Source: Patescibacteria group bacterium (GTDB taxonomy: Bacteria > Patescibacteriota > Minisyncoccia > Phycocordibacterales > UBA9973). From it: a DNA stretch of 64,000 bases. The position numbers and the translations under genes were made by a program. Shown in pieces: positions 2,240-54,393 of the stretch (the stretch's first letter is position 1; each line of letters opens with the position of its first letter). The stretch lies in the NCBI GenBank assembly GCA_040389365.1, contig JAZKAB010000009.1, positions 44,816 through 108,815 of the forward strand. Direction: 5' to 3'. The notes beneath the pieces are model-generated. The model had not been told where the DNA came from, did not search any database, and worked only from the letters and a program-made list of their open reading frames with translations.

Positions 2240-3232
2240 CTATTCTAATATTGTAGCTTGATATTGCGCGGGTGCATTCACCAGATACTGCTGCAGGCTT
2301 TCCCTTGTCAGCAATCCTTTCTGCGCGCCGACATACTGCACGACAGACATGGAGTTGATTGGCCCCCATTGCAGCGCCTCAGGAACAGTCTTGCCTATAA
2401 GCAATGCAACTGAAACGGTTGAGGCAAACGCGTCTCCGGCACCGGTGCGCTCGAACGGGTCATGCGGGTATACGGGCATAAACCAGTGCGTCGTGCCGTC
2501 TGAGGCATACGCGCCCTTGATGCCGTCAGTTATGAAGACGAGCTTTGGTCCAAGTGCGTGCAGTGACTTGATCAGTTCCTTTACGTCATGCGTACTGTTT
2601 TTTGTTATAAGCTGCGCTTCTTCAAGGTTGCAGAAGAATGCATAGGTATTTGCATAGATATCTTTTAGTACTTCCGTGCCAAGCTTCATCTGGAACGTGC
2701 CTGGCTGGAATACCACTTTCATTTCAGAATGCTCCTTGATGAATGTTGCGATTTCAGCGTGATACGCTTCGGTATGGTCTCCGAGAGAAGAAAGGTACAG
2801 CATCTTAGGCGCGACGGTCAGTGCAGGCATCGCAACAGGGAATGTTGCATGCTTTACGAGAATGGTGCGCTCAACGCCATACCAGAGCACGTAGTGGTAA
2901 TTGGTCTTGATACCGTCATGCATGCCAACGTATTGCGTCTGTACGTTGTTTTTCTTCAATTCCTCAATGCAGTCTTTGCCTTGCTGGTCTTGTCCAACAT
3001 GCGCAAGCAATGCCGCTGAAAGGCCGAGGCGTGCAGCAGAAACTGCAGCATTGGCGCTATTGCCAACAGCCTTCACTTCTTCCATAGACTCGTACGGCAC
3101 CTTGTCGCCATAGCGAAAGGCAAGATTCGCATTGCTGCCGTCTGCAGCTGTTATGACTTCTGCGTCATTTACTCTGATAAACGCATCGGTTACCATGTCG
3201 CCGATAGCGAGAAAATCTATTTGTTGGTCCAT
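2240..3232 (-). CDS. PfkB/ribokinase-family carbohydrate kinase
   Basis: The product has an N-terminal DFLAIGDMVTDAF motif and a C-terminal GAGDAF anion-hole motif typical of the ribokinase superfamily. The start was chosen at MDQQIDF (nt 3232) to avoid overlapping fba. Confidence 0.65.
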   Translation of the reverse strand: MDQQIDFLAIGDMVTDAFIRVNDAEVITAADGSNANLAFRYGDKVPYESMEEVKAVGNSANAAVSAARLGLSAALLAHVGQDQQGKDCIEELKKNNVQTQYVGMHDGIKTNYHYVLWYGVERTILVKHATFPVAMPALTVAPKMLYLSSLGDHTEAYHAEIATFIKEHSEMKVVFQPGTFQMKLGTEVLKDIYANTYAFFCNLEEAQLITKNSTHDVKELIKSLHALGPKLVFITDGIKGAYASDGTTHWFMPVYPHDPFERTGAGDAFASTVSVALLIGKTVPEALQWGPINSMSVVQYVGAQKGLLTRESLQQYLVNAPAQYQATILE

Positions 3233-4116: not shown

Positions 4117-5781
4117 ATGATTAACGTCTCAGACCTTCAGAAGCACGTGCATGGCGAAGTGATGGCAGACGAGCCGACGCTGATCAAGTATTCTCGCGAT
4201 GCCAGCCTTTTTGAAGTGCGGCCGGAAGCGGTTGTCTTTCCGAAAGATACTGCTGACGTGCAGGCGATCGTGCAGTATATTGCAGCGCACAAGGAGCAGG
4301 ACCCGTCGCTTTCAATCACCGCGCGCTCTGCCGGCACTGACATGTCTGGCGGCCCGCTGAACGAAAGCCTTATCATGGACTTTACCAAGTACATGCACAC
4401 GCTCGTGTCAGTTGATGACAATAGGGGCATTGCGCAGCCCGGCGTGTTCTATAGGGATTTTGAAAAGGAAACGCTGAAGCGCAATCGGCTTATGCCCGCA
4501 TATACTGCGTCTAAGGAACTAAATGCAATTGGCGGCATGGTCGCCAACAATTCAGGCGGCGAGAAGTCGATCAAGTATGGCAAGACAGAAAACTATGTCT
4601 TGCGTCAAAAGGTTGTCTTTTCAGACGGGAACGAGTATGAAGTGCAGCCGTTGAACAAAGAGGAGCTTGCTGCCAAGATGGCTCAGGGAGACTTTGAAGG
4701 CAACGTATACAAGCAGCTCTATGACCTTATCGAGCTGCACTATGACGCCATTCAGGCAGCGCGCCCGAACGTAACAAAAAACTCAGCCGGATACTATCTC
4801 TGGAATGTCTGGAACAGGGAGACAGGCATATTTGATCCAAACAAGGTACTCGTCGGCTCGCAAGGCACGCTTGCGCTGAGCACTGAAATTGAGCTAGGGC
4901 TGGTGCCCGTGCCGAAGCATTCGAAGATGGTGGTGATGTACTTGCCAACGATTGCTCGATTGGGAGAGGTTGTTGATACGGTGATGCGGTACAAGCCAGA
5001 AAGCTTCGAATCGTATGACGACTACAGCATGAAGCTTGCCATCAAGTTCTCGTTTGACTTCTTTTCGCAGCTTGGCTTCTGGGGCGCGATTAAGCTTGGC
5101 ATTCAGTTTATTCCTGATTTGTGGCAGGTGATCATCGGCGGCGTCCCGAAGCTTATCCTGATGGCAGAAGTGACCGGAGACGACGAGGCAGAGGTATTGG
5201 CGCGTGCCAATGCCATTAAGGCAGCGGTGAAGCCGTTTAAGTACAGCACCCATGTTGCGCGAAGCGCGGCTGAGGTTGAGAAATACTGGAAGATACGCAG
5301 AGAAAGCTTTAACCTGCTGCGCAAGCACGTGCAGGGAAAGCAGACCGCGCCTTTCATCGACGACATTATCGTTGACCCGCACAAGATGCCGGAATTCCTG
5401 CCGCAGCTGCAGGCGATTCTTGACCAGTATAAGCTCGTGTATACGATTGCGGGACACGCAGGCAATGGCAATTTTCATATCATTCCATTGATGGATCTGA
5501 ACAATCCTATTTCAAGCGACATCATCCTTGACCTTTCGAAGAAGGTCTACACGCTTGTTACCGCATACAAGGGCTCCATTACCGCCGAACACAATGACGG
5601 CATTATCCGCACGCCATTTCTTTCATACATGTATAGTCCAGAAATTATTCAACTGTTTGCCAAGGTCAAGGATATCTTTGACCCGCTGCATATCTTCAAT
5701 CCAGGCAAGAAGGTTGGGGGATCGTTTGAGTATATTGGCACGCACCTCGTAAAGTCTCATCCAGTTGCGCATAATTCATAA
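4117..5781 (+). CDS. FAD-binding oxidoreductase (FAD-linked oxidase, GlcD/D-lactate dehydrogenase-like)
   Basis: The product has a PCMH-type FAD-binding region (ARSAGTDMSGGPL, GGMVANNSGGEKS). A 554-aa length is typical for this family. Confidence 0.7.
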   Translation: MINVSDLQKHVHGEVMADEPTLIKYSRDASLFEVRPEAVVFPKDTADVQAIVQYIAAHKEQDPSLSITARSAGTDMSGGPLNESLIMDFTKYMHTLVSVDDNRGIAQPGVFYRDFEKETLKRNRLMPAYTASKELNAIGGMVANNSGGEKSIKYGKTENYVLRQKVVFSDGNEYEVQPLNKEELAAKMAQGDFEGNVYKQLYDLIELHYDAIQAARPNVTKNSAGYYLWNVWNRETGIFDPNKVLVGSQGTLALSTEIELGLVPVPKHSKMVVMYLPTIARLGEVVDTVMRYKPESFESYDDYSMKLAIKFSFDFFSQLGFWGAIKLGIQFIPDLWQVIIGGVPKLILMAEVTGDDEAEVLARANAIKAAVKPFKYSTHVARSAAEVEKYWKIRRESFNLLRKHVQGKQTAPFIDDIIVDPHKMPEFLPQLQAILDQYKLVYTIAGHAGNGNFHIIPLMDLNNPISSDIILDLSKKVYTLVTAYKGSITAEHNDGIIRTPFLSYMYSPEIIQLFAKVKDIFDPLHIFNPGKKVGGSFEYIGTHLVKSHPVAHNS

Positions 5782-15322: not shown

Positions 15323-15671
15323 ATTGGAATAGGAAGCATCTTTATTGCTGTATAAAGTGCGCTAGGGAGTATGTATAAGAAATTATATTAACGTCGCACA
15401 ATTAAGCCTTATGCGACAAGCTTTTTAATACAATCCACACAATCCACAGCCTATATATGCCTATCTATAAATATTATAAAAATAATATATATGAGATATT
15501 CTTGTGGAAAACTTTATACAGATCGTTAATATCATCGGATTTTGGCATCTATTTTTCTTCGTACTTTTGCTGGGAACAATCCTAGTTGCACTTTTCTACA
15601 TCGCGCTCTCATGGATGGCTTACGGTATCGCTCGCGCTTGGCGCATCGGTATCAAAGGGTCACGCTAAAAC

Positions 15672-47510: not shown

Positions 47511-47672
47511 ATGACCCTAAAGACACCAGTAAAAGAAATATCGGAAAAGCTTGGCGTCAGCACCCAGGCTGTTTACCTGTGGAAGGCCGGCAAGTCTTTG
47601 CCTTCTTCCAAGAACCTGCTAAAGCTTGCGGAAATGGAAGGAACGACAGTGGACAGCCTTCTAAATAGCTAG
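47511..47672 (+). CDS. Cro/XRE-like helix-turn-helix regulator (53 aa)
   Basis: MTLKTPVKEISEKLGVSTQAVYLWKAGKSLPSSKNLLKLAEMEG is a classic Cro/CI-type HTH. It is not in the ORF track because it is shorter than 60 aa. Confidence 0.5.
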   Translation: MTLKTPVKEISEKLGVSTQAVYLWKAGKSLPSSKNLLKLAEMEGTTVDSLLNS

Positions 47673-47682
47673 CCTCTCAAGT

Positions 47683-49143
47683 GTGTACACTTTGTACATG
47701 CTTATATTAGACATTTTCGATCGCTTCTTCGGAAGAAATGGCCAGCAGGTTATAGACCCCGAGGCAGTATCAGTAAAAAAGTACCCGCTCAGCGCCCATC
47801 TCAACGATCCCGACTCCCGCGACGTTTCCTATCCGTTCGTTGCCGGATCGATCGCGCCTTCGTTTCCAGCGCAATACAATACGGACGTATCTCACATGAC
47901 CCGTCTATGGCAGGGATATTTGGGTACCTGCGTGGCGCACTGCTACGAATTCATCAAGCGGCTTCTTGATTTCAATGAGACTGGTGCCGAGACAATATAT
48001 TCCCGCCGCTTTCTCTATGTTCTAACCCGTCGCTTCACGAATGCGGTGAATACCGACTCTGAGCAGAACCAGGGGCTTTCTCCTCGTGATGCTGCAAAGA
48101 TACTCGCTACGGCAGGAATTGCTAAGGATAGCGGCCAGGATGACAACAGTCTTCCTCATAGTGCTTACGTGAACAGTTATGTTGTTACTGATGCCATGAG
48201 AAGCGAGGCGGCACTTTACCGATCCGGAGGATTCGCGTTTCCTATCATCGACTCCAGCGTCCTAAAGAAGGCGATCATGCAGAACAAGGCGGTAGGAGTG
48301 ACTATCGGGATAGACTGGTCCAAAGTCTCGCCTGACGGCACCGTGCGCCCTCCTGCGGTCCTTGCAGGCTTCCATGAGGTTGCCCTGTACGGATGGGAGA
48401 CTGTCAGCGGAAAGGAGCGCTTCATCGCCCGAAACTGGTGGCCAGAATTGCCAAACCTTTACATAAACAGCGAAGACATTGAAAAGGTAGTATACGACTC
48501 GATCGTCTTTACGGACATTCCGAACGATCTTCTTTTGCGAGCAAAGCAGCGGCAGTACGTGTTCCTCACCGATCTCAAGCAGGGAATAGTGAGCGACGCG
48601 GTAGTCCAGCTGCAGAAGTGCCTGAAAGAATACGGCCTTTTCTCGGCGGCATTCAGCAGGTCTTTCGGCCCCGCTACGCTGCAGGCAGTGAAGGATTTCC
48701 AGAAACTGAAAGGCCTGACAGCTGACGGCGCATTAGGGCCGAAGAGTCGCGCCGCTCTCAACGAGTCGGCAGGGAATACGCTTTCAAAGTCAAGGCTCGA
48801 CTTGTGGTGCGAGGCGGCGAAGAATATGGACGGGGCAAAGTCCTATCTCAACAATCCTGGCAATATCCGCTGCAACGCGATAATGAACAAGAACGCGATA
48901 AGCGTAAGCAACAACGGCTTCTGCATGTTCCCTACATACGAGGCAGGGTACAAGGCCCTGCGCGATATGTTTATCCGAGCAGCTACCATAGGCACTGCAA
49001 ACTATCAGCCGACAATGACCCTGTATCAGTTCTATGCGAAATATGCTCCTTCTAACGACGGCAACGATCCGAACCATTATGCCGAATATGTGGCGACCCA
49101 TATTGGAGTATCACCTAGCACGATGATCAAGGATCTGGTATAA
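47683..49143 (+). CDS. putative endolysin: papain-like cysteine peptidase + PG_binding_1 peptidoglycan-binding domain + unknown C-terminal domain
   Basis: WQGYLGTCVAHCYEF (Q...C) and GFHEVALYGWE (His strand) match the papain pattern. DAVVQLQKCLKEYGLFSAAFSRSFGPATLQAVKDFQKLKGLTADGALGPKSRAAL is a PG_binding_1 repeat. Confidence 0.55.
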   Translation: MYTLYMLILDIFDRFFGRNGQQVIDPEAVSVKKYPLSAHLNDPDSRDVSYPFVAGSIAPSFPAQYNTDVSHMTRLWQGYLGTCVAHCYEFIKRLLDFNETGAETIYSRRFLYVLTRRFTNAVNTDSEQNQGLSPRDAAKILATAGIAKDSGQDDNSLPHSAYVNSYVVTDAMRSEAALYRSGGFAFPIIDSSVLKKAIMQNKAVGVTIGIDWSKVSPDGTVRPPAVLAGFHEVALYGWETVSGKERFIARNWWPELPNLYINSEDIEKVVYDSIVFTDIPNDLLLRAKQRQYVFLTDLKQGIVSDAVVQLQKCLKEYGLFSAAFSRSFGPATLQAVKDFQKLKGLTADGALGPKSRAALNESAGNTLSKSRLDLWCEAAKNMDGAKSYLNNPGNIRCNAIMNKNAISVSNNGFCMFPTYEAGYKALRDMFIRAATIGTANYQPTMTLYQFYAKYAPSNDGNDPNHYAEYVATHIGVSPSTMIKDLV

Positions 49144-49334
49144 GATCCATAATACCCAGATAGTATATAAAAAAGCCTTATTTTCTGGTGACTTATCCAC
49201 AGGTATTGCACATTTCTGCAAAATAAGTAGTATACTGTGTGTATTAAAAGTAAGGTGTCCGCCCATAGAAAAAGCCCTCAAACGCGTTAATGAGAGCTTA
49301 ATCTAGGTTTAATGCAAAATAAAGAAAGTCTAGC

Positions 49335-49365
49335 CCTCAGTTTTAAAACTGAGGTTTTCTTATTT
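49335..49365. terminator. bidirectional terminator (perfect palindrome cctcagttttaaaactgagg followed by a T-run)
   Basis: A 20-nt perfect palindrome is followed by ttttcttattt. Confidence 0.55.
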
Positions 49366-49388: not shown

Positions 49389-49544
49389 TTACTTGCACAT
49401 GCCGTGTTCGGGGCAGAATGGTGGCCAGCTACGGAGACCGTAAAGGCGGGCATTCTTGCACACACCATTTGGACAGATCACTGTACGGAACAGCATCTTT
49501 TTGCCACAAACGGGACACAGACACGGCTTTTTTGAATTTGCCAT
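49389..49544 (-). CDS. Cys-rich 51-aa protein (MANSKKPCLCPVCGKKMLFRTVICPNGVCKNARLYGLRSWPPFCPEHGMCK), hypothetical
   Basis: It has eight Cys in 51 aa arranged as CxCxxC...CPxxxC. The terminator palindrome lies 35 nt downstream on the - strand. Confidence 0.3.
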   Translation of the reverse strand: MANSKKPCLCPVCGKKMLFRTVICPNGVCKNARLYGLRSWPPFCPEHGMCK

Positions 49545-49654
49545 ATTTGGTTGTAGTGTTCGATAGTTTGGTTAAGAGGTCGATCCCTCTCCCGCATGCC
49601 TGAAATTTCTGAAGCAATGGCTGGGTAACTAACAACTGTTGATAGTGGGAGTGA

Positions 49655-49815
49655 TGTAGTGAGAAACAAAAATGTCCTGCACTACGTTCTATAGGTTGCG
49701 GCGGCCAAACAAAGAATTTGTTTGAACATCTACAATTGTAGGTATTCAAGTGATGCGAATCACCTTTCAACCTACAGAACGTAAAGCAGGACATGCTGCT
49801 TTGTTTGACTCTCTC
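49655..49815. promoter_or_regulatory. extended imperfect palindromic element downstream of the integrase gene (candidate att / recombinase-binding region or ncRNA)
   Basis: Long inverted repeats are tcctgcactacgttctataggttg (49674) against caacctacagaacgtaaagcagga (49767), and gagaaacaaaaatgtcctgc against gcaggacatgctgctttgtttgac. Central mini-palindromes are ctacaattgtag and gtgatgcgaatcac. Confidence 0.35.
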
Positions 49816-49884
49816 GTGCATCACTACGAGTTAATTTTTTAAAACTGATCCCATTATAGCATATTTTTATGTAAAAGTTAAATC

Positions 49885-50715
49885 CTAAATGTATTTTTTA
49901 GCCAGTCGCTTGAACTCGTCCGGCAGTAGGGATGTATACATTTGAGTCGATATGATGGTCCGGTGCCTCAGCACTTCCTTGATGTCATTGAGGTGTGCCC
50001 CGTCCTTGAGCATCTTGTGCGCTTTCCCGTGCCTGAACATGTGCGGATGGACATTGTGACCTATTCCGGCATTCGTCGCTACTGAGGCGACCCAGCGCTC
50101 TACAGAGCGGGTAGTGATGCGCTCGCCCTTGCGGTTCGTGAACAGCGCGGGGTGCTCGTCAAGGCAAAGCTTGGTCCCTATGTACCGCATCAAGAGCTTG
50201 TGAGATTTTCCGCTCCACATGATCCAATCCATATGCCTGTTTTTCTTGGTGACGATCTTGGCGAAGTGGCGAGTGTTCTTTATATCGAGCACGTCCAGGT
50301 CGCACAATTCAGATACTCGTATGCCCGTACTCCACAATAGGTTGATGACAAGCTTCTTCTGCAGGGAATAGTACTCCCATTCGCTCAGCGACTTGTCCAT
50401 CATCCTGAACTCCTGCTCCGTAATGAAAGAGACGGGCTCAGGGGTAAATTTTGGCCGCTTGATCAGCTTCGGGTTTACCTCGGTGCGGTAGTATGAAAAG
50501 AAGTCTTTCAGTATGTTTACATAATAGACTATGGTTCTCGGCTTGAACGGGAGGGAAGCGATGAAGCTGGTAACGTCGCTTTGCGCTATCTTTGTCATCT
50601 CCTTTGAGCAGTGCTTCTCGAATGCTGCCAAGCACGGCGCATAGGAAATAGAGGCGGGAACCGCGTAGCTCCTTTTCCAATCCAGATATTCAGTTATTGC
50701 TCTTGATATATGCAT
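49885..50715 (-). CDS. tyrosine recombinase / phage integrase (XerD-like)
   Basis: It has the C-terminal catalytic motifs HMFRHGKAHKML...LRHRTIISTQMYT (R-H-R-Y). The ORF is open to 50814, and the start at MHISRAITEY is preferred. Confidence 0.75.
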   Translation of the reverse strand: MHISRAITEYLDWKRSYAVPASISYAPCLAAFEKHCSKEMTKIAQSDVTSFIASLPFKPRTIVYYVNILKDFFSYYRTEVNPKLIKRPKFTPEPVSFITEQEFRMMDKSLSEWEYYSLQKKLVINLLWSTGIRVSELCDLDVLDIKNTRHFAKIVTKKNRHMDWIMWSGKSHKLLMRYIGTKLCLDEHPALFTNRKGERITTRSVERWVASVATNAGIGHNVHPHMFRHGKAHKMLKDGAHLNDIKEVLRHRTIISTQMYTSLLPDEFKRLAKKYI

Positions 50716-50943
50716 AAAACACAAAACCGCGGGGAAAAACCGCGGTTCGTGCTGTTGCAACATAGCCCAAAAGAGGGCCACGATCAGTATAGCAAAATCC
50801 ATTGTTTTCCCCATACCCTTGCGGGCACGTCCTTTGCAGGCAACGGCGTTATTCGGTTATGTTCGCATATTAACCTTATATTAGATTATGTCAAGTAGGG
50901 AAGCATCTTAATACTTTTATGCTCAAGTTCTATACTTTTAAAC

Positions 50944-51164: not shown

Positions 51165-51234
51165 TGCGGTTTAGTATAATGGTAGTACGCCGGGCTCATA
51201 TCCCGGAAGCGCTGTTCGATTCAGTCATCCGCAA
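51165..51234 (+). tRNA. tRNA-Met (anticodon CAU)-like, with two stem mismatches and a short variable region
   Basis: The fold has D-loop AATGGTA, anticodon stem CCGGG/CCCGG with three G:C pairs, loop CTCATAT and T-loop TTCGATT. Mismatches occur at 6:67 (T-T) and 49:65 (C-C), and the length is 70 nt. Confidence 0.5.
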
Positions 51235-51240
51235 CAATAA

Positions 51241-51268
51241 GAAAGCCCCTTTATAAAGGGGCTTTTGC
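51241..51268 (+). terminator. hairpin terminator after the tRNA (aaagccccttt-ata-aaggggcttt)
   Basis: An 11-bp stem is followed by ttgcc. Confidence 0.5.
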
Positions 51269-51403: not shown

Positions 51404-51932
51404 AGCTGACTGTTTTGTTAAGTCTACATCTTAAGAGCAGGAGTTATTAACATGTTCTTGCAAGTAATACTTGCACGCAATTTCAGGTGGTATATACTTA
51501 AGGAGGTTCGATAAAAACTTTATAGAAAGTCATACAAAAATCTTCCTCCAGTACGGGAAACGGCCGGGGATAAGTGGTGTATAAATCGGGATCTGAATGT
51601 TAACAACTTTTCGACGATAAAAAGTTACGGGGAGTTGTTATATTTTTATCCACAGTAACGTCGCACAATATATCTTTCGCGTCGTCTATATTCATTTTCA
51701 GCTATACTCTGTGTATGGCGCTGAATATCTACGCTGCAAATACTGGCATGTCGCATTCAATCGGTAGTCTCTAAACTCTTGGCTGTCATATCTAAAAGAT
51801 ATTGAACTTAGCATAAACGGCTGAGACGTCAGCTATGATTATGCGGAGCTGGAGGCTACCGAGTGAATGCAGACATATTGTCTTCTTTAAGATAATTCAG
51901 GGGAGACGCACTTCCCTTTCCTGTATAGTATT

Positions 51933-52316: not shown

Positions 52317-53576
52317 TTATATAGGCTCAACTATATCCATGGTTTTTAGATCAGGTTTTTTTTCAAGCATAGCGATTAAACATTTTCCTATATGATATCC
52401 AAGATTTACGGGAACTGCATTTCCGATTTGCTTATATTGAGATGATGTTGAACCTTGAAAATCCCAATTGTCAGGGAACGACTGTATACGCGCATATTCA
52501 CGAACCGTAAGAGGACGAGTTTCTTCTGGGTGACATCTTTCCGTTTGCTTTTGAGCGGGCGCACAGGTTAAAGTCAAACTTGGTTCATCCCAAGATAGCC
52601 TTCGTGCCATTCCTGTCTTGCCTCCTCCTAAATAAAAGCTTCCTTGCATATATTCTTTCTGAAGATCTATTGGAAGATCTCTCCAGTATCCCCCTTGTGG
52701 GATCAGGCTCAATATTTCCTTCTTTCTTTTAGGATATTGTTGCCCTGCTGATATTGGTACATTTTGCAAAGCCTCTCTTAAGCTAACTGTGTAATCTTGT
52801 TCTTTTGGAAAAAGTATAGGTAGGTCTAGGTCGTTGCGCACCCCTAAAATTACCAATCTTTCGCGTTTTTGTGCAACATCTAAGTATTGTGATCTAAGTA
52901 CTTTATAGGCAACTTTATATCCTAGCTCCTTTAGAACAGAGATAATTACCGGCAATGTTTTTCCTTCATCATGAGTCAATAAGCCTTTAACATTTTCACC
53001 CATAAAAATTTTAGGGCGTATTTCTTTTACACATCTTGCGAGTTCGAAAAACAACGTTCCGCGAGCGTCATTAAACCCCATTTTTTTCCCAGCTTCACTA
53101 AAAGCTTGGCAAGGAAACCCACCTTCAACAATATCTGCCTTATATCCGCTGAAATCAAAATCTCTTACATCGGCTCTAACCGCATTCCATTCCGGATGGT
53201 TCTTGTTTAGTGTAGAAACAGAATCCTTATCCAAATCAACCAGCAATGCATGCTTTAAACCAGCATTTTCAAAACCGAGTGCTGTTCCACCTGCACCTGC
53301 AAAAAGTTCCACCACCGTATAGCCGGTTTTTTTATTTGACTTAAGTACTTTGAATTTATTCCCATTGCTTTTTCCTGCAATTTTTTCCTGCAATTTTTTA
53401 ATTTCAGAAAAACTAAAAAGCCTATGATTTTGATCAGATCGAGTAGCTTTAATTAACCCTTTTTTTTCCCACCTTCTAATAGTATCGGTTGAAACGTCTA
53501 TTGCTTCTGCTGCCTCATGAACATTTAATAGCTTATCCATGGCTATAGTATATATTAGTACCCTTGCTATATGCAA
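52317..53576 (-). CDS. DNA (cytosine-5)-methyltransferase with an N-terminal helix-turn-helix domain
   Basis: It has motif I (ELFAGAGGTALGFENAG), motif IV (GGFPCQAFS), ENV, and an N-terminal HTH (LNVHEAAEAIDVSTDTIRRWEKKGLI). Confidence 0.8.
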   Translation of the reverse strand: MHIARVLIYTIAMDKLLNVHEAAEAIDVSTDTIRRWEKKGLIKATRSDQNHRLFSFSEIKKLQEKIAGKSNGNKFKVLKSNKKTGYTVVELFAGAGGTALGFENAGLKHALLVDLDKDSVSTLNKNHPEWNAVRADVRDFDFSGYKADIVEGGFPCQAFSEAGKKMGFNDARGTLFFELARCVKEIRPKIFMGENVKGLLTHDEGKTLPVIISVLKELGYKVAYKVLRSQYLDVAQKRERLVILGVRNDLDLPILFPKEQDYTVSLREALQNVPISAGQQYPKRKKEILSLIPQGGYWRDLPIDLQKEYMQGSFYLGGGKTGMARRLSWDEPSLTLTCAPAQKQTERCHPEETRPLTVREYARIQSFPDNWDFQGSTSSQYKQIGNAVPVNLGYHIGKCLIAMLEKKPDLKTMDIVEPI

Positions 53577-53581
53577 GGGTA

Positions 53582-54298
53582 CTAATATATTTTATCAAAT
53601 AATGCTTTGTAGGAATCAGATTTAATTAATTGGGTTGGCGATTTCTTCAGCGCAATGCATGTAATTAATATTAAATTCATATAAATTTTTTCCAAAGCAT
53701 TTGGGTCTCCCGTAGCTAGTTCATAAAAGCTTTTCCCATCAATAACCCTTATCTTTTCATTTATTGGACGCCTAGATTTTGAATTATTATCTGAAGGAGT
53801 AAAAGAATTATTATAAACTTTTTTATTTTTAGGTATTATTTCAACATAATATCCTATATATCCTTCATATGTAGTATTTAGTAAACCATTGAGATTGTCG
53901 TAAATAGCAGTTTTATGATTACCTTTAGTTGTATTATGCTTATTCTTAACCTCAGCTATTATTTTCTTTTTAGTATTCTTAACATCTATTATCTTCCCTG
54001 TCCCAAGGTTTTCCCAGCCCTTAAATGAGCCAATAACATTTTGGTGAAACTCACCTAGTGCATTCTGAAGGCTTTTTTGAATTTGACGTGCTTTTTCTTG
54101 TTCAATCCAATCGGAAATTGAAATGTTTTTTAAAAGGCTTTCGAATAAGGCAGAAAATGGGTCAACGGAGTTTTTATAGAAATCCGCATCGCTTTTTTCA
54201 AGAGATCTTTTAGCAACTGAAATAACCGCATTTACATGTTTTGTTAAATCTTCATTCGATATAAATGGTAATTCTGGCACTATAATCTTACTGTTCAT
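53582..54298 (-). CDS. putative type II restriction endonuclease (partner of the C5 methyltransferase)
   Basis: A 238-aa AT-rich gene lies immediately upstream of the MTase gene in the same operon. It has no diagnostic motif, and the call is by context. Confidence 0.45.
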   Translation of the reverse strand: MNSKIIVPELPFISNEDLTKHVNAVISVAKRSLEKSDADFYKNSVDPFSALFESLLKNISISDWIEQEKARQIQKSLQNALGEFHQNVIGSFKGWENLGTGKIIDVKNTKKKIIAEVKNKHNTTKGNHKTAIYDNLNGLLNTTYEGYIGYYVEIIPKNKKVYNNSFTPSDNNSKSRRPINEKIRVIDGKSFYELATGDPNALEKIYMNLILITCIALKKSPTQLIKSDSYKALFDKIY

Positions 54299-54393
54299 GT
54301 TGTTATGATATCTTAATCTTGTCGAAATTACCATCTCTTAAATTAGGCTATAATTTATCTTTTCTTGATACAATACTACAACATTTTACTTCT

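Follow-up and report, generated by a model that had tools for sequence, protein, structure and literature searches.

The prophage and its integrase gene

The window, by which we mean the whole 64,000-nt stretch analysed here, carries a tailed-phage genome of roughly 36 kb (about 15.4 to about 51.7 kb) within a Patescibacteria MAG. Host genes for transketolase, aldolase, the proteins L25 and L9 and a release factor occupy the window from position 1 to about 15.3 kb, and host genes, represented by a P-type ATPase, are found again by about 57 kb. The phage encodes a terminase (22062), a portal (23520), a major head protein (28085), an endolysin-like protein (47683-49143) and a Xer-like tyrosine integrase (int; Table 1), which over its full length scored 160 bits against the NCBIfam model for XerA, 130 bits against XerC and 126 bits against XerD, all below the equivalog cut-offs of 220-335. 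tRNA genes adjoin the integrase module within the phage, both in the window (tRNA-Met, 51165-51235) and in the related loci L001 (2463-2549) and L100 (2597-2669); a repeat of the tRNA 3' half was not found at the other prophage end.

A nested palindrome downstream of the integrase gene

About 55-70 nt past the int stop codon and on the same strand begins a long imperfect palindrome (hp2), which the original prediction had correctly placed immediately downstream of the integrase. The nested palindrome of about 160 nt described there is real, with a slightly larger extent of about 183 nt, and all four sequence pairs that were singled out are present in the sequence (Table 1). The main arms are separated by 69 nt, and pairing reaches outwards to 49650-49656 / 49819-49825. 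When folded as RNA, hp2 proved structured far beyond chance on both strands, with minimum free energies of about -69 kcal/mol (-68.6 to -69; z -5.8) for the plus strand and -71.4 to -71.7 kcal/mol (z -8.95) for the minus strand; in both cases 0 of 200 dinucleotide shuffles were as stable. After correction for GC content, hp2 is in the top three of the 180-nt windows of the 64 kb by degree of structure. It is a real palindrome that is very unlikely to have arisen by chance, and an assembly chimera is an unlikely source, given an imperfect palindrome with three different internal hairpins.

Table 1. Positions of the palindrome, its parts and neighbouring features in the window, and of related features in loci of integrase relatives
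Feature	Position	Strand	Remarks
Xer-like tyrosine integrase (int), 276 aa as called in the MAG	49885..50715	-	Pfam PF00589 Phage_integrase match
Sigma-70-type promoter TTAACT-17-TATAAT with extended -10 TG	49853..49881	-	motif scan, 10/12 with TG
Whole nested palindrome (hp2)	49650..49832	-	minus-strand RNA: 64-bp branched hairpin; outer stems, 27-bp main stem, three small hairpins at the tip
hp2 main stem, 5' arm AUGUCCUGCUUUACGUUCUGUAGGUUG	49768..49794	-	repeat search, 27 nt, 89% complementary
hp2 main stem, 3' arm CAACCUAUAGAACGUAGUGCAGGACAU	49672..49698	-	GC-rich base GCAGGAC abuts the U-tract
hp2 U-rich tract UUUUGUUUCUCAC	49659..49671	-	directly 3' of the stem base, reading AUUUUUGUUUCU
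Small hairpin a, GGUGAU-UCGC-AUCACU	49749..49764	-	centroid structure
Central hairpin b	49724..49747		core of the 28-bp palindrome, contains ctacaattgtag
Small hairpin c, AACAA-AUUCU-UUGUU	49708..49722	-	predicted structure
Arm pair tcctgcactacgttctataggttg / caacctacagaacgtaaagcagga	49675-49698 / 49768-49791		original prediction
Arm pair gagaaacaaaaatgtcctgc / gcaggacatgctgctttgtttgac	49661-49680 / 49786-49809		original prediction
Mini-palindrome ctacaattgtag	49730-49741		original prediction
Mini-palindrome gtgatgcgaatcac	49750-49763		original prediction
Small hairpin CTCGTGCATCACTACGAG + TTAATTTTTT	49813..49840	+	terminator-like for plus-strand transcripts; overlaps hp2 outer stem
Hairpin terminator	49335..49354		common to convergent plus-strand unit 49193-49365 and minus-strand unit
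51-aa Cys-rich ORF MANSKKPCLCPVCGKK..., uncalled	49389..49544	-	110 nt downstream of hp2
TTATCCACA sites	window 49193-49365 (plus), 51646-51654; L001-L004, L099, L100, L102, L104, L011		in relatives just after int
R2 RNA	L001 4159-4343; L005 3385-3562; L007 3385-3564; L019 2422-2607; L020 3382-3575	same as int	just downstream of int
int 5' leader in relatives	L001 ~2879-3003; L002 ~2959-3100; L004 ~2874-3003; L099 ~2918-3045; L100 ~2998-3128; L102 ~2885-3018; L104 ~1881-2059; L016 2341-2383		also in L010, L011, L013, L008, L026
Clade core site in relatives	L001 3979; L102 4231; L004 4152; L104 3416		also in L008-L029

The interior of hp2 holds three small hairpins. The central one lies within a 28-bp palindrome, TTGAACATCTA-CAATTG-TAGGTATTCAA (49722-49749), with 14-nt arms matching at 86% (repeat search), the loop of hairpin a reads GCGA on the plus strand, a GNRA tetraloop, and hairpin c is followed by the unpaired junction UGGCCGCCG (49707-49699). 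In the predicted structure the U-tract can pair with an upstream A-tract, AAACAAAG (49805-49799), as in bidirectional terminators. The long stem of the minus-strand RNA includes three G·U pairs, two in the main-stem helix (49784/49682 and 49775/49691) and one in the adjacent outer helix (49799/49671). On the plus strand each of these three pairs is an A·C mismatch, and the fold of that strand has a single G·U in the long stem. ARAGORN found no tRNA or tmRNA in hp2, and a 131-aa ORF across it, checked for coding potential, is absent from a 15-billion-protein collection.

The promoter in the spacer between int and hp2 lies 14-20 nt upstream of hp2 on the minus strand, with a predicted start at about 49846, 14 nt ahead of the hp2 5' end (49832). 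Only five sites in the two strands of the window (128 kb in total) reach 10/12 or more with TG, this promoter among them, and the chance of such a promoter in the right orientation within the 70-nt spacer is about 0.003. Downstream of hp2, the uncalled 51-aa Cys-rich ORF may be carried as cargo by the same transcription unit; the 15-billion-protein collection contains neither it nor a homologue. A second Cys-rich ORF of 55 aa (47340-47507, plus strand) has only weak Pfam matches and no PHROG match. Both contain a CPxCGK motif and have the look of a zinc ribbon, have nothing else in common, and each is preceded, about 70-110 nt upstream, by one of the window's two long hairpins.

Conservation of the palindrome

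Integrase relatives with 22-61% identity were gathered from Logan, NCBI, JGI, IMG/VR and GTDB genomes, and their loci were labelled L001 and onwards; a search of IMG/VR with the single protein gave no close relatives. A single-sequence covariance model of hp2 (R1) found no homologue besides hp2 itself in 41 related loci. Exact and degenerate patterns recovered nothing from viral contigs and metagenomes except one chance match inside a CDS (L107), blastn gave no match in deposited phage genomes, and local alignments of hp2 with the long hairpins of relatives and with hp1 scored no higher than shuffled sequences. Rfam contained no match to hp2 at the gathering threshold, the only hits in the window being two tRNAs, and at E-values up to 10 hp2 matched only generic long-hairpin miRNA models (20-24 bits against gathering thresholds of 90-180). 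The 64-kb window contains no second copy, and no flanking direct repeat or target-site duplication was seen. hp2 therefore fails the comparison with related elements that had been proposed as its check: it is an orphan, with no homologue in the loci and collections searched.

Structured RNAs around the integrase genes of relatives

Five of the relatives carry a conserved RNA of about 180 nt just downstream of int (model R2; Table 1), with 40 predicted pairs, of which 12 are compensatory, a 13-bp closing stem, GUGCAGGAG/CUCCUGCAC, and no Rfam match. In L005 (3631-3726) and L020 (3703-3798) it is followed by a DUF3800-V RNA (RF02964). On the window, R2 gave no match with default filters and, with filters off, 6.6 bits on the bare hp2 hairpin only. 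hp2 matches none of the RNAs of the relatives; it has their position, strand, size and closing-stem design.

Most close relatives also encode a unit that combines a TTATCCACA box, a promoter, a short structured RNA with the att core and a terminator. The perfect DnaA-box-like TTATCCACA stands 4-15 nt upstream of a promoter with a TTGCAC -35 and a TATAAT-like -10 element, from which the short RNA leads to an intrinsic terminator. As the short RNA of the relatives crosses the att core, integration would break it. The counterpart in the window, on the plus strand at 49193-49365, comprises the box, promoter and short RNA without the att core, and a second TTATCCACA of the window directly abuts the core sequence at 51656.

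An HNH endonuclease gene directly follows the int stop codon in L103-L106 (e.g. L104, 2930-3298), which shows the int-downstream spot to be an insertion hot spot. Furthermore, L002 contains two direct copies of a half-site, AACGTCGCACAAT (4350-4362 and 5728-5749), 1.4 kb apart and bracketing three small genes; over 22 nt the second copy matches positions 51654-51675 of the window without a difference. One possibility is that the integrase inserted the bracketed segment, as a small element, at the phage's own att site.

On the other side of the gene, a conserved structured 5' leader of int was identified by direct extraction and descriptor search (window 50716-50894, minus strand; relatives in Table 1). 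It starts with a promoter containing a perfect TTGACA and continues with a three-way junction in which a stem CCRTTG/CARYGG encloses two GNRA-capped hairpins (in the window CCGTTG-CCTGCAAAGG-...-CCCGCAAGGG-...-CAATGG, 50846-50799). The junction is followed by a conserved GCTATAMT, a further hairpin, and a hairpin with UUUGUGUUUUAUG abutting the start codon. From locus to locus, the stems show full covariation. This leader, which is not in Rfam, resembles an attenuator that governs integrase expression in riboswitch-like fashion or under protein control.

A putative RNA element on the integrase strand

Of the readings offered by the original prediction, a structured ncRNA has the best anatomical fit to hp2, with its own promoter, G·U asymmetry and U-tract, and lacks the support of conservation. 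We tentatively favour a minus-strand RNA that would serve as an oversized intrinsic terminator or 3' stabiliser of the int message and, from its own promoter, would yield an RNA of about 185 nt or a leader attenuator of a small ORF; we infer transcription, termination, any processing and any trans-acting role from sequence features. In this model hp2 would be transcribed from two sources, by read-through from int and from the strong extended -10 promoter. The transcript would fold into the branched hairpin with its GC-rich lower stem, GUCCUGC/GCAGGAC, and run directly into AUUUUUGUUUCU, the stem and U-tract together acting as the oversized intrinsic terminator. Termination here would end the int mRNA and provide it with a stable 3' hairpin, the near-continuous duplex of about 34 bp would be a substrate for RNase III, and int would be insulated from the convergent plus-strand units. 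The transcript from the internal promoter would either be released as a hairpin RNA or act as attenuator ahead of the 51-aa Cys-rich ORF.

Several features point to the minus strand. The exceptional fold is better on this strand (z -8.95 against -5.78), the three long-stem G·U positions are A·C on the other, no gene is called across hp2, and the upstream TTAACT-17-TGcTATAAT contains the only TGnTATAAT of the window. The U-tract abuts the stem base (minus strand ...GCAGGACAUUUUUGUUUCU), and the A-tract/stem/U-tract layout is like that of the terminators at 49335-49354 and 51242-51265. The hp2 tail CATTTTTGTTTCTCAC also resembles GGTTTTTTGTTTTCTAC, the tail of the int-distal terminator of L001. 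No other minus-strand terminator was found by terminator scan between the int stop codon and the next gene, and the relatives have a canonical one 150-500 nt past int. The position of hp2 is moreover a hot spot for RNA genes in relatives.

Other features speak against a minus-strand RNA. There is neither a homologue nor covariation, and a DNA palindrome yields the same fold statistics on both strands; the two strands differ little in energy (-71.4 and -68.6 kcal/mol), and the GNRA loop lies on the plus strand, as do a terminator-like hairpin and T-run (49813-49840). In place of the compact loop of 3-8 nt found in intrinsic terminators, hp2 has a branched 69-nt interior with three hairpins, which is atypical, and the terminator scan does not call it because this "loop" exceeds 8 nt. 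The outer stems (49650-49664 / 49810-49825) could not form if the transcript ended in the U-tract, and efficient termination would leave the 51-aa ORF without a promoter. The segments of hp2 that are exposed in the fold found only chance 10-12-mers as antisense targets within the window.

One known element close to the favoured minus-strand RNA in layout is the sib / tI retroregulator of lambda, an RNase III-sensitive hairpin-terminator downstream of int. Like sib, hp2 closely follows the int 3' end on the same strand as a stable hairpin that carries a U-run, and its duplex of more than 22 bp has the length of an RNase III substrate; by analogy, it would set the 3' end and stability of the int mRNA. 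It differs from sib in being about three times larger and branched, in having its own promoter and in sharing no sequence similarity. Whereas attP lies between int and sib in lambda, so that integration uncouples them, the candidate att site of the present prophage is on the other side of int and the hairpin remains coupled to int after integration. Searches of the literature on retroregulation and on Patescibacteria prophage att sites yielded nothing directly applicable. Bidirectional Rho-independent terminators likewise combine an A-tract, a GC-rich stem and a U-tract between convergent units, but hp2 departs from them in its stem of at least 27 bp, its three-hairpin interior in place of a short loop, its extra outer pairing beyond the tracts and its escape from the scanner. 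The R2 and DUF3800-V RNAs of the relatives resemble hp2 in length, in position and strand next to a homologous integrase, and in the long stem that closes the 5' and 3' ends around a multibranch interior; they differ in interior architecture, and neither sequence nor model matches.

Alternative explanations

A DNA-level role, in which hp2 would be a protein-binding palindrome of two inverted 27-bp sites around the central 28-bp palindrome, is regarded as unlikely. Such a palindrome could be an operator or looping site, a cruciform, an element of a replication origin or an accessory site for recombination or packaging. The nearly equal fold energies of the two strands would suit this explanation, as would the DnaA-box-like TTATCCACA 460 nt from hp2. 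That DNA operators can mimic RNA hairpins in this phage is illustrated by the hairpin at 47120-47270, which is an operator pair. This explanation does not transfer to hp2, however, because the hp2 arms, unlike operators, are not self-palindromic, and because their sequence is unique in the window. Furthermore, no operator or integrase-site motif occurs within hp2, a protein-site model has no need of three mutually unrelated internal hairpins, and on one strand every mismatch is of the G·U type.

The hairpin at 47120-47270 (z -8.9), the second long hairpin of the window, is a DNA feature formed by two copies of the palindromic operator TTGCAAG-N5-CTTGCAA (47125-47143 and 47246-47264), which lie on either side of two GC-rich hairpins in a region of divergent promoters. 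A third copy (51458-51476) overlaps a promoter at about 51471-51498 that is oriented towards the candidate att site. A small HTH gene near the operators (53-aa HTH_3, 47511-47672) is likely to encode a repressor or Cro.

It appears rather improbable that hp2 works on the plus strand, as an RNA transcribed from the left and ended by the hairpin and T-run at 49813-49840, or as a bidirectional back-up terminator; in either form it would block antisense read-through into int or make an antisense RNA of about 265 nt. hp2 does lie between convergent transcription units, the plus strand has the GNRA loop GCGA, CTCGTGCATCACTACGAG with TTAATTTTTT is terminator-like and a motif scan placed a 9/12 promoter at 49538-49567. 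That promoter is weak, however, and the plus-strand unit is already served by a good terminator at 49335-49354; the T-rich run starts 5 nt past the main stem and is poorer, and both the G·U pattern and the strong promoter argue for the minus strand.

We consider it distinctly improbable that hp2 is without function, either as a selfish or relic palindromic insert of the MITE or ERIC kind or as the decayed relic of a palindromic attP. Like hp2, ERIC, MITE and Correia-type repeats are imperfect palindromes, of 130-180 bp and in transcribed intergenic regions, that fold as RNA hairpins. An orphan absent from the relatives and collections searched would be expected of such an insert, the region 3' of int is variable and a hot spot for insertions (the HNH gene in L103-L106, and different RNAs and small ORFs), and in L004 and L100 the att core lies inside a long palindrome at the same relative position. 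In contrast to those repeats, hp2 occurs once in 64 kb, shows no target-site duplication and has no relatives in the collections searched. It also contains no remnant of the GTCGCA core, and the strong promoter and U-tract frame it precisely.

There is only a slim prospect that hp2 is a lineage-specific member of an undescribed class of phage RNAs linked to integrases, located 3' of Xer-like integrase genes. Such a class would include the R2 RNA and the att-spanning promoter-RNA-terminator units of the relatives, and its members might control recombination (directionality, fate of the int mRNA, choice of site) and not act as passive terminators.

Probable core recombination sites of the integrase clade

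The original prediction had also offered hp2 as an attP-like region bound by the recombinase or as a Xer-type site. The integrase is indeed Xer-like, the hp2 centre lies about 150 nt past the int stop codon, at the distance of the core site in relatives, and the central 28 bp (49722-49749) have 11-6-11 geometry with 9/11 arm symmetry, as in Xer/dif core sites with their 11-6/8-11 inverted arms; any 28-bp palindrome would fit this geometry. hp2 matches neither the dif consensus nor the site of the integrase clade, however. No dif-like sequence was found anywhere in the window with up to 3 mismatches to the consensus DBBBCSBATAATRTAYATTATGTHAANT, and the clade motif described below is absent from 49650-49832. 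Segments of hp2 of at least 12 nt did not recur beyond chance near the candidate prophage ends or elsewhere in the window. Comparison with integron systems was equally negative: integron integrase models scored 27-48 bits against cut-offs of 265-435 (one of them 48 bits against 265), the window has no cassette array, and the outer ends GAGAAAC...GTTTGAC do not fit the R''/R' boxes of attC, which read RYYYAAC...GTTRRRY. With the clade core absent, no dif match, no conservation and no repetition at the prophage ends, hp2 was rejected as an att or Xer site, and its use by the integrase as an internal attP-like, Xer/dif-type or attC/CTX-type folded single-strand site is highly improbable.

A Xer-style site with inverted arms was instead located elsewhere. 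The palindrome GTCGYAHAA-N6/7-TTDTRCGAC, with at most 1 mismatch per arm, occurs in 15 of the 35 loci from related integrases and in none of the 75 more distant ones (404 kb). It lies mostly downstream of int, 130-470 nt past the gene in most of the 15 loci, and is probably the cognate core site of this clade of Xer-like integrases, as judged from sequence comparison. The window contains the full motif once (15393-15417, within a site spanning 15391-15419; 0.00 expected by chance), and this copy fits an 11-7-11 reading, as a site of a Xer-like enzyme should. In a half-site at 51660, within 51656-51680, the left arm is retained and the right one is degenerate, which would be expected of a half derived from attB. 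The two sites flank the phage genes, and because the clade core motif occurs there, as a full site and a half-site, 15.39 kb and 51.66 kb are taken as the candidate attL and attR of a prophage of about 36.3 kb. Both share the 14-nt identity TAACGTCGCACAAT (15389 and 51656), a match that alone is within chance for regions of this size. GTCGCACAAT is also found just downstream of int in L001, L002, L004, L102 and L104, with variants in more distant relatives. The spacers of the 15393 and 51660 sites differ, so that the crossover point is not fixed exactly, and no empty attB was found, contigs with the flanking host genes being identical short fragments that end before the junctions.

Significance and further observations

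Taken alone, hp2 is single-copy and unconserved, and its most likely job, ending or stabilising the int message or giving rise to a small phage RNA, is an ordinary one; it is a new orphan example of a familiar type of element. The main value of its analysis is corrective, in that it separates a striking palindrome from the recombination site and locates the probable Xer-style core site of the clade. In phages of Patescibacteria and of some Bacteroidota, structured RNAs are densely packed beside these integrase genes, namely the 5' leader with its two GNRA hairpins and a terminator at the start codon, the 3' RNA of about 180 nt and DUF3800-V. If these RNAs control integrase expression, they would offer a first handle on the control of lysogeny in phages of an uncultured radiation. 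The conserved int leader is more promising than hp2, and both the leader and the clade core site merit a study of their own.

The phage also encodes a protein of 1722 aa (41511-46679) with weak PARP and ART-PolyVal (ADP-ribosyltransferase) matches, which may be a polyvalent injected or tail protein. Directly outside the candidate attR, a restriction enzyme of the Eco47II type and a C5-cytosine methylase that carries an N-terminal MerR-type HTH are encoded at 52317-54334, in a stretch of low GC content (0.34). A third long hairpin (51748-51880, z -5.1) is located just outside the candidate attR, and its arms open with ATGTCGCATTCAATCGG, a variant of the GTCGCA motif.
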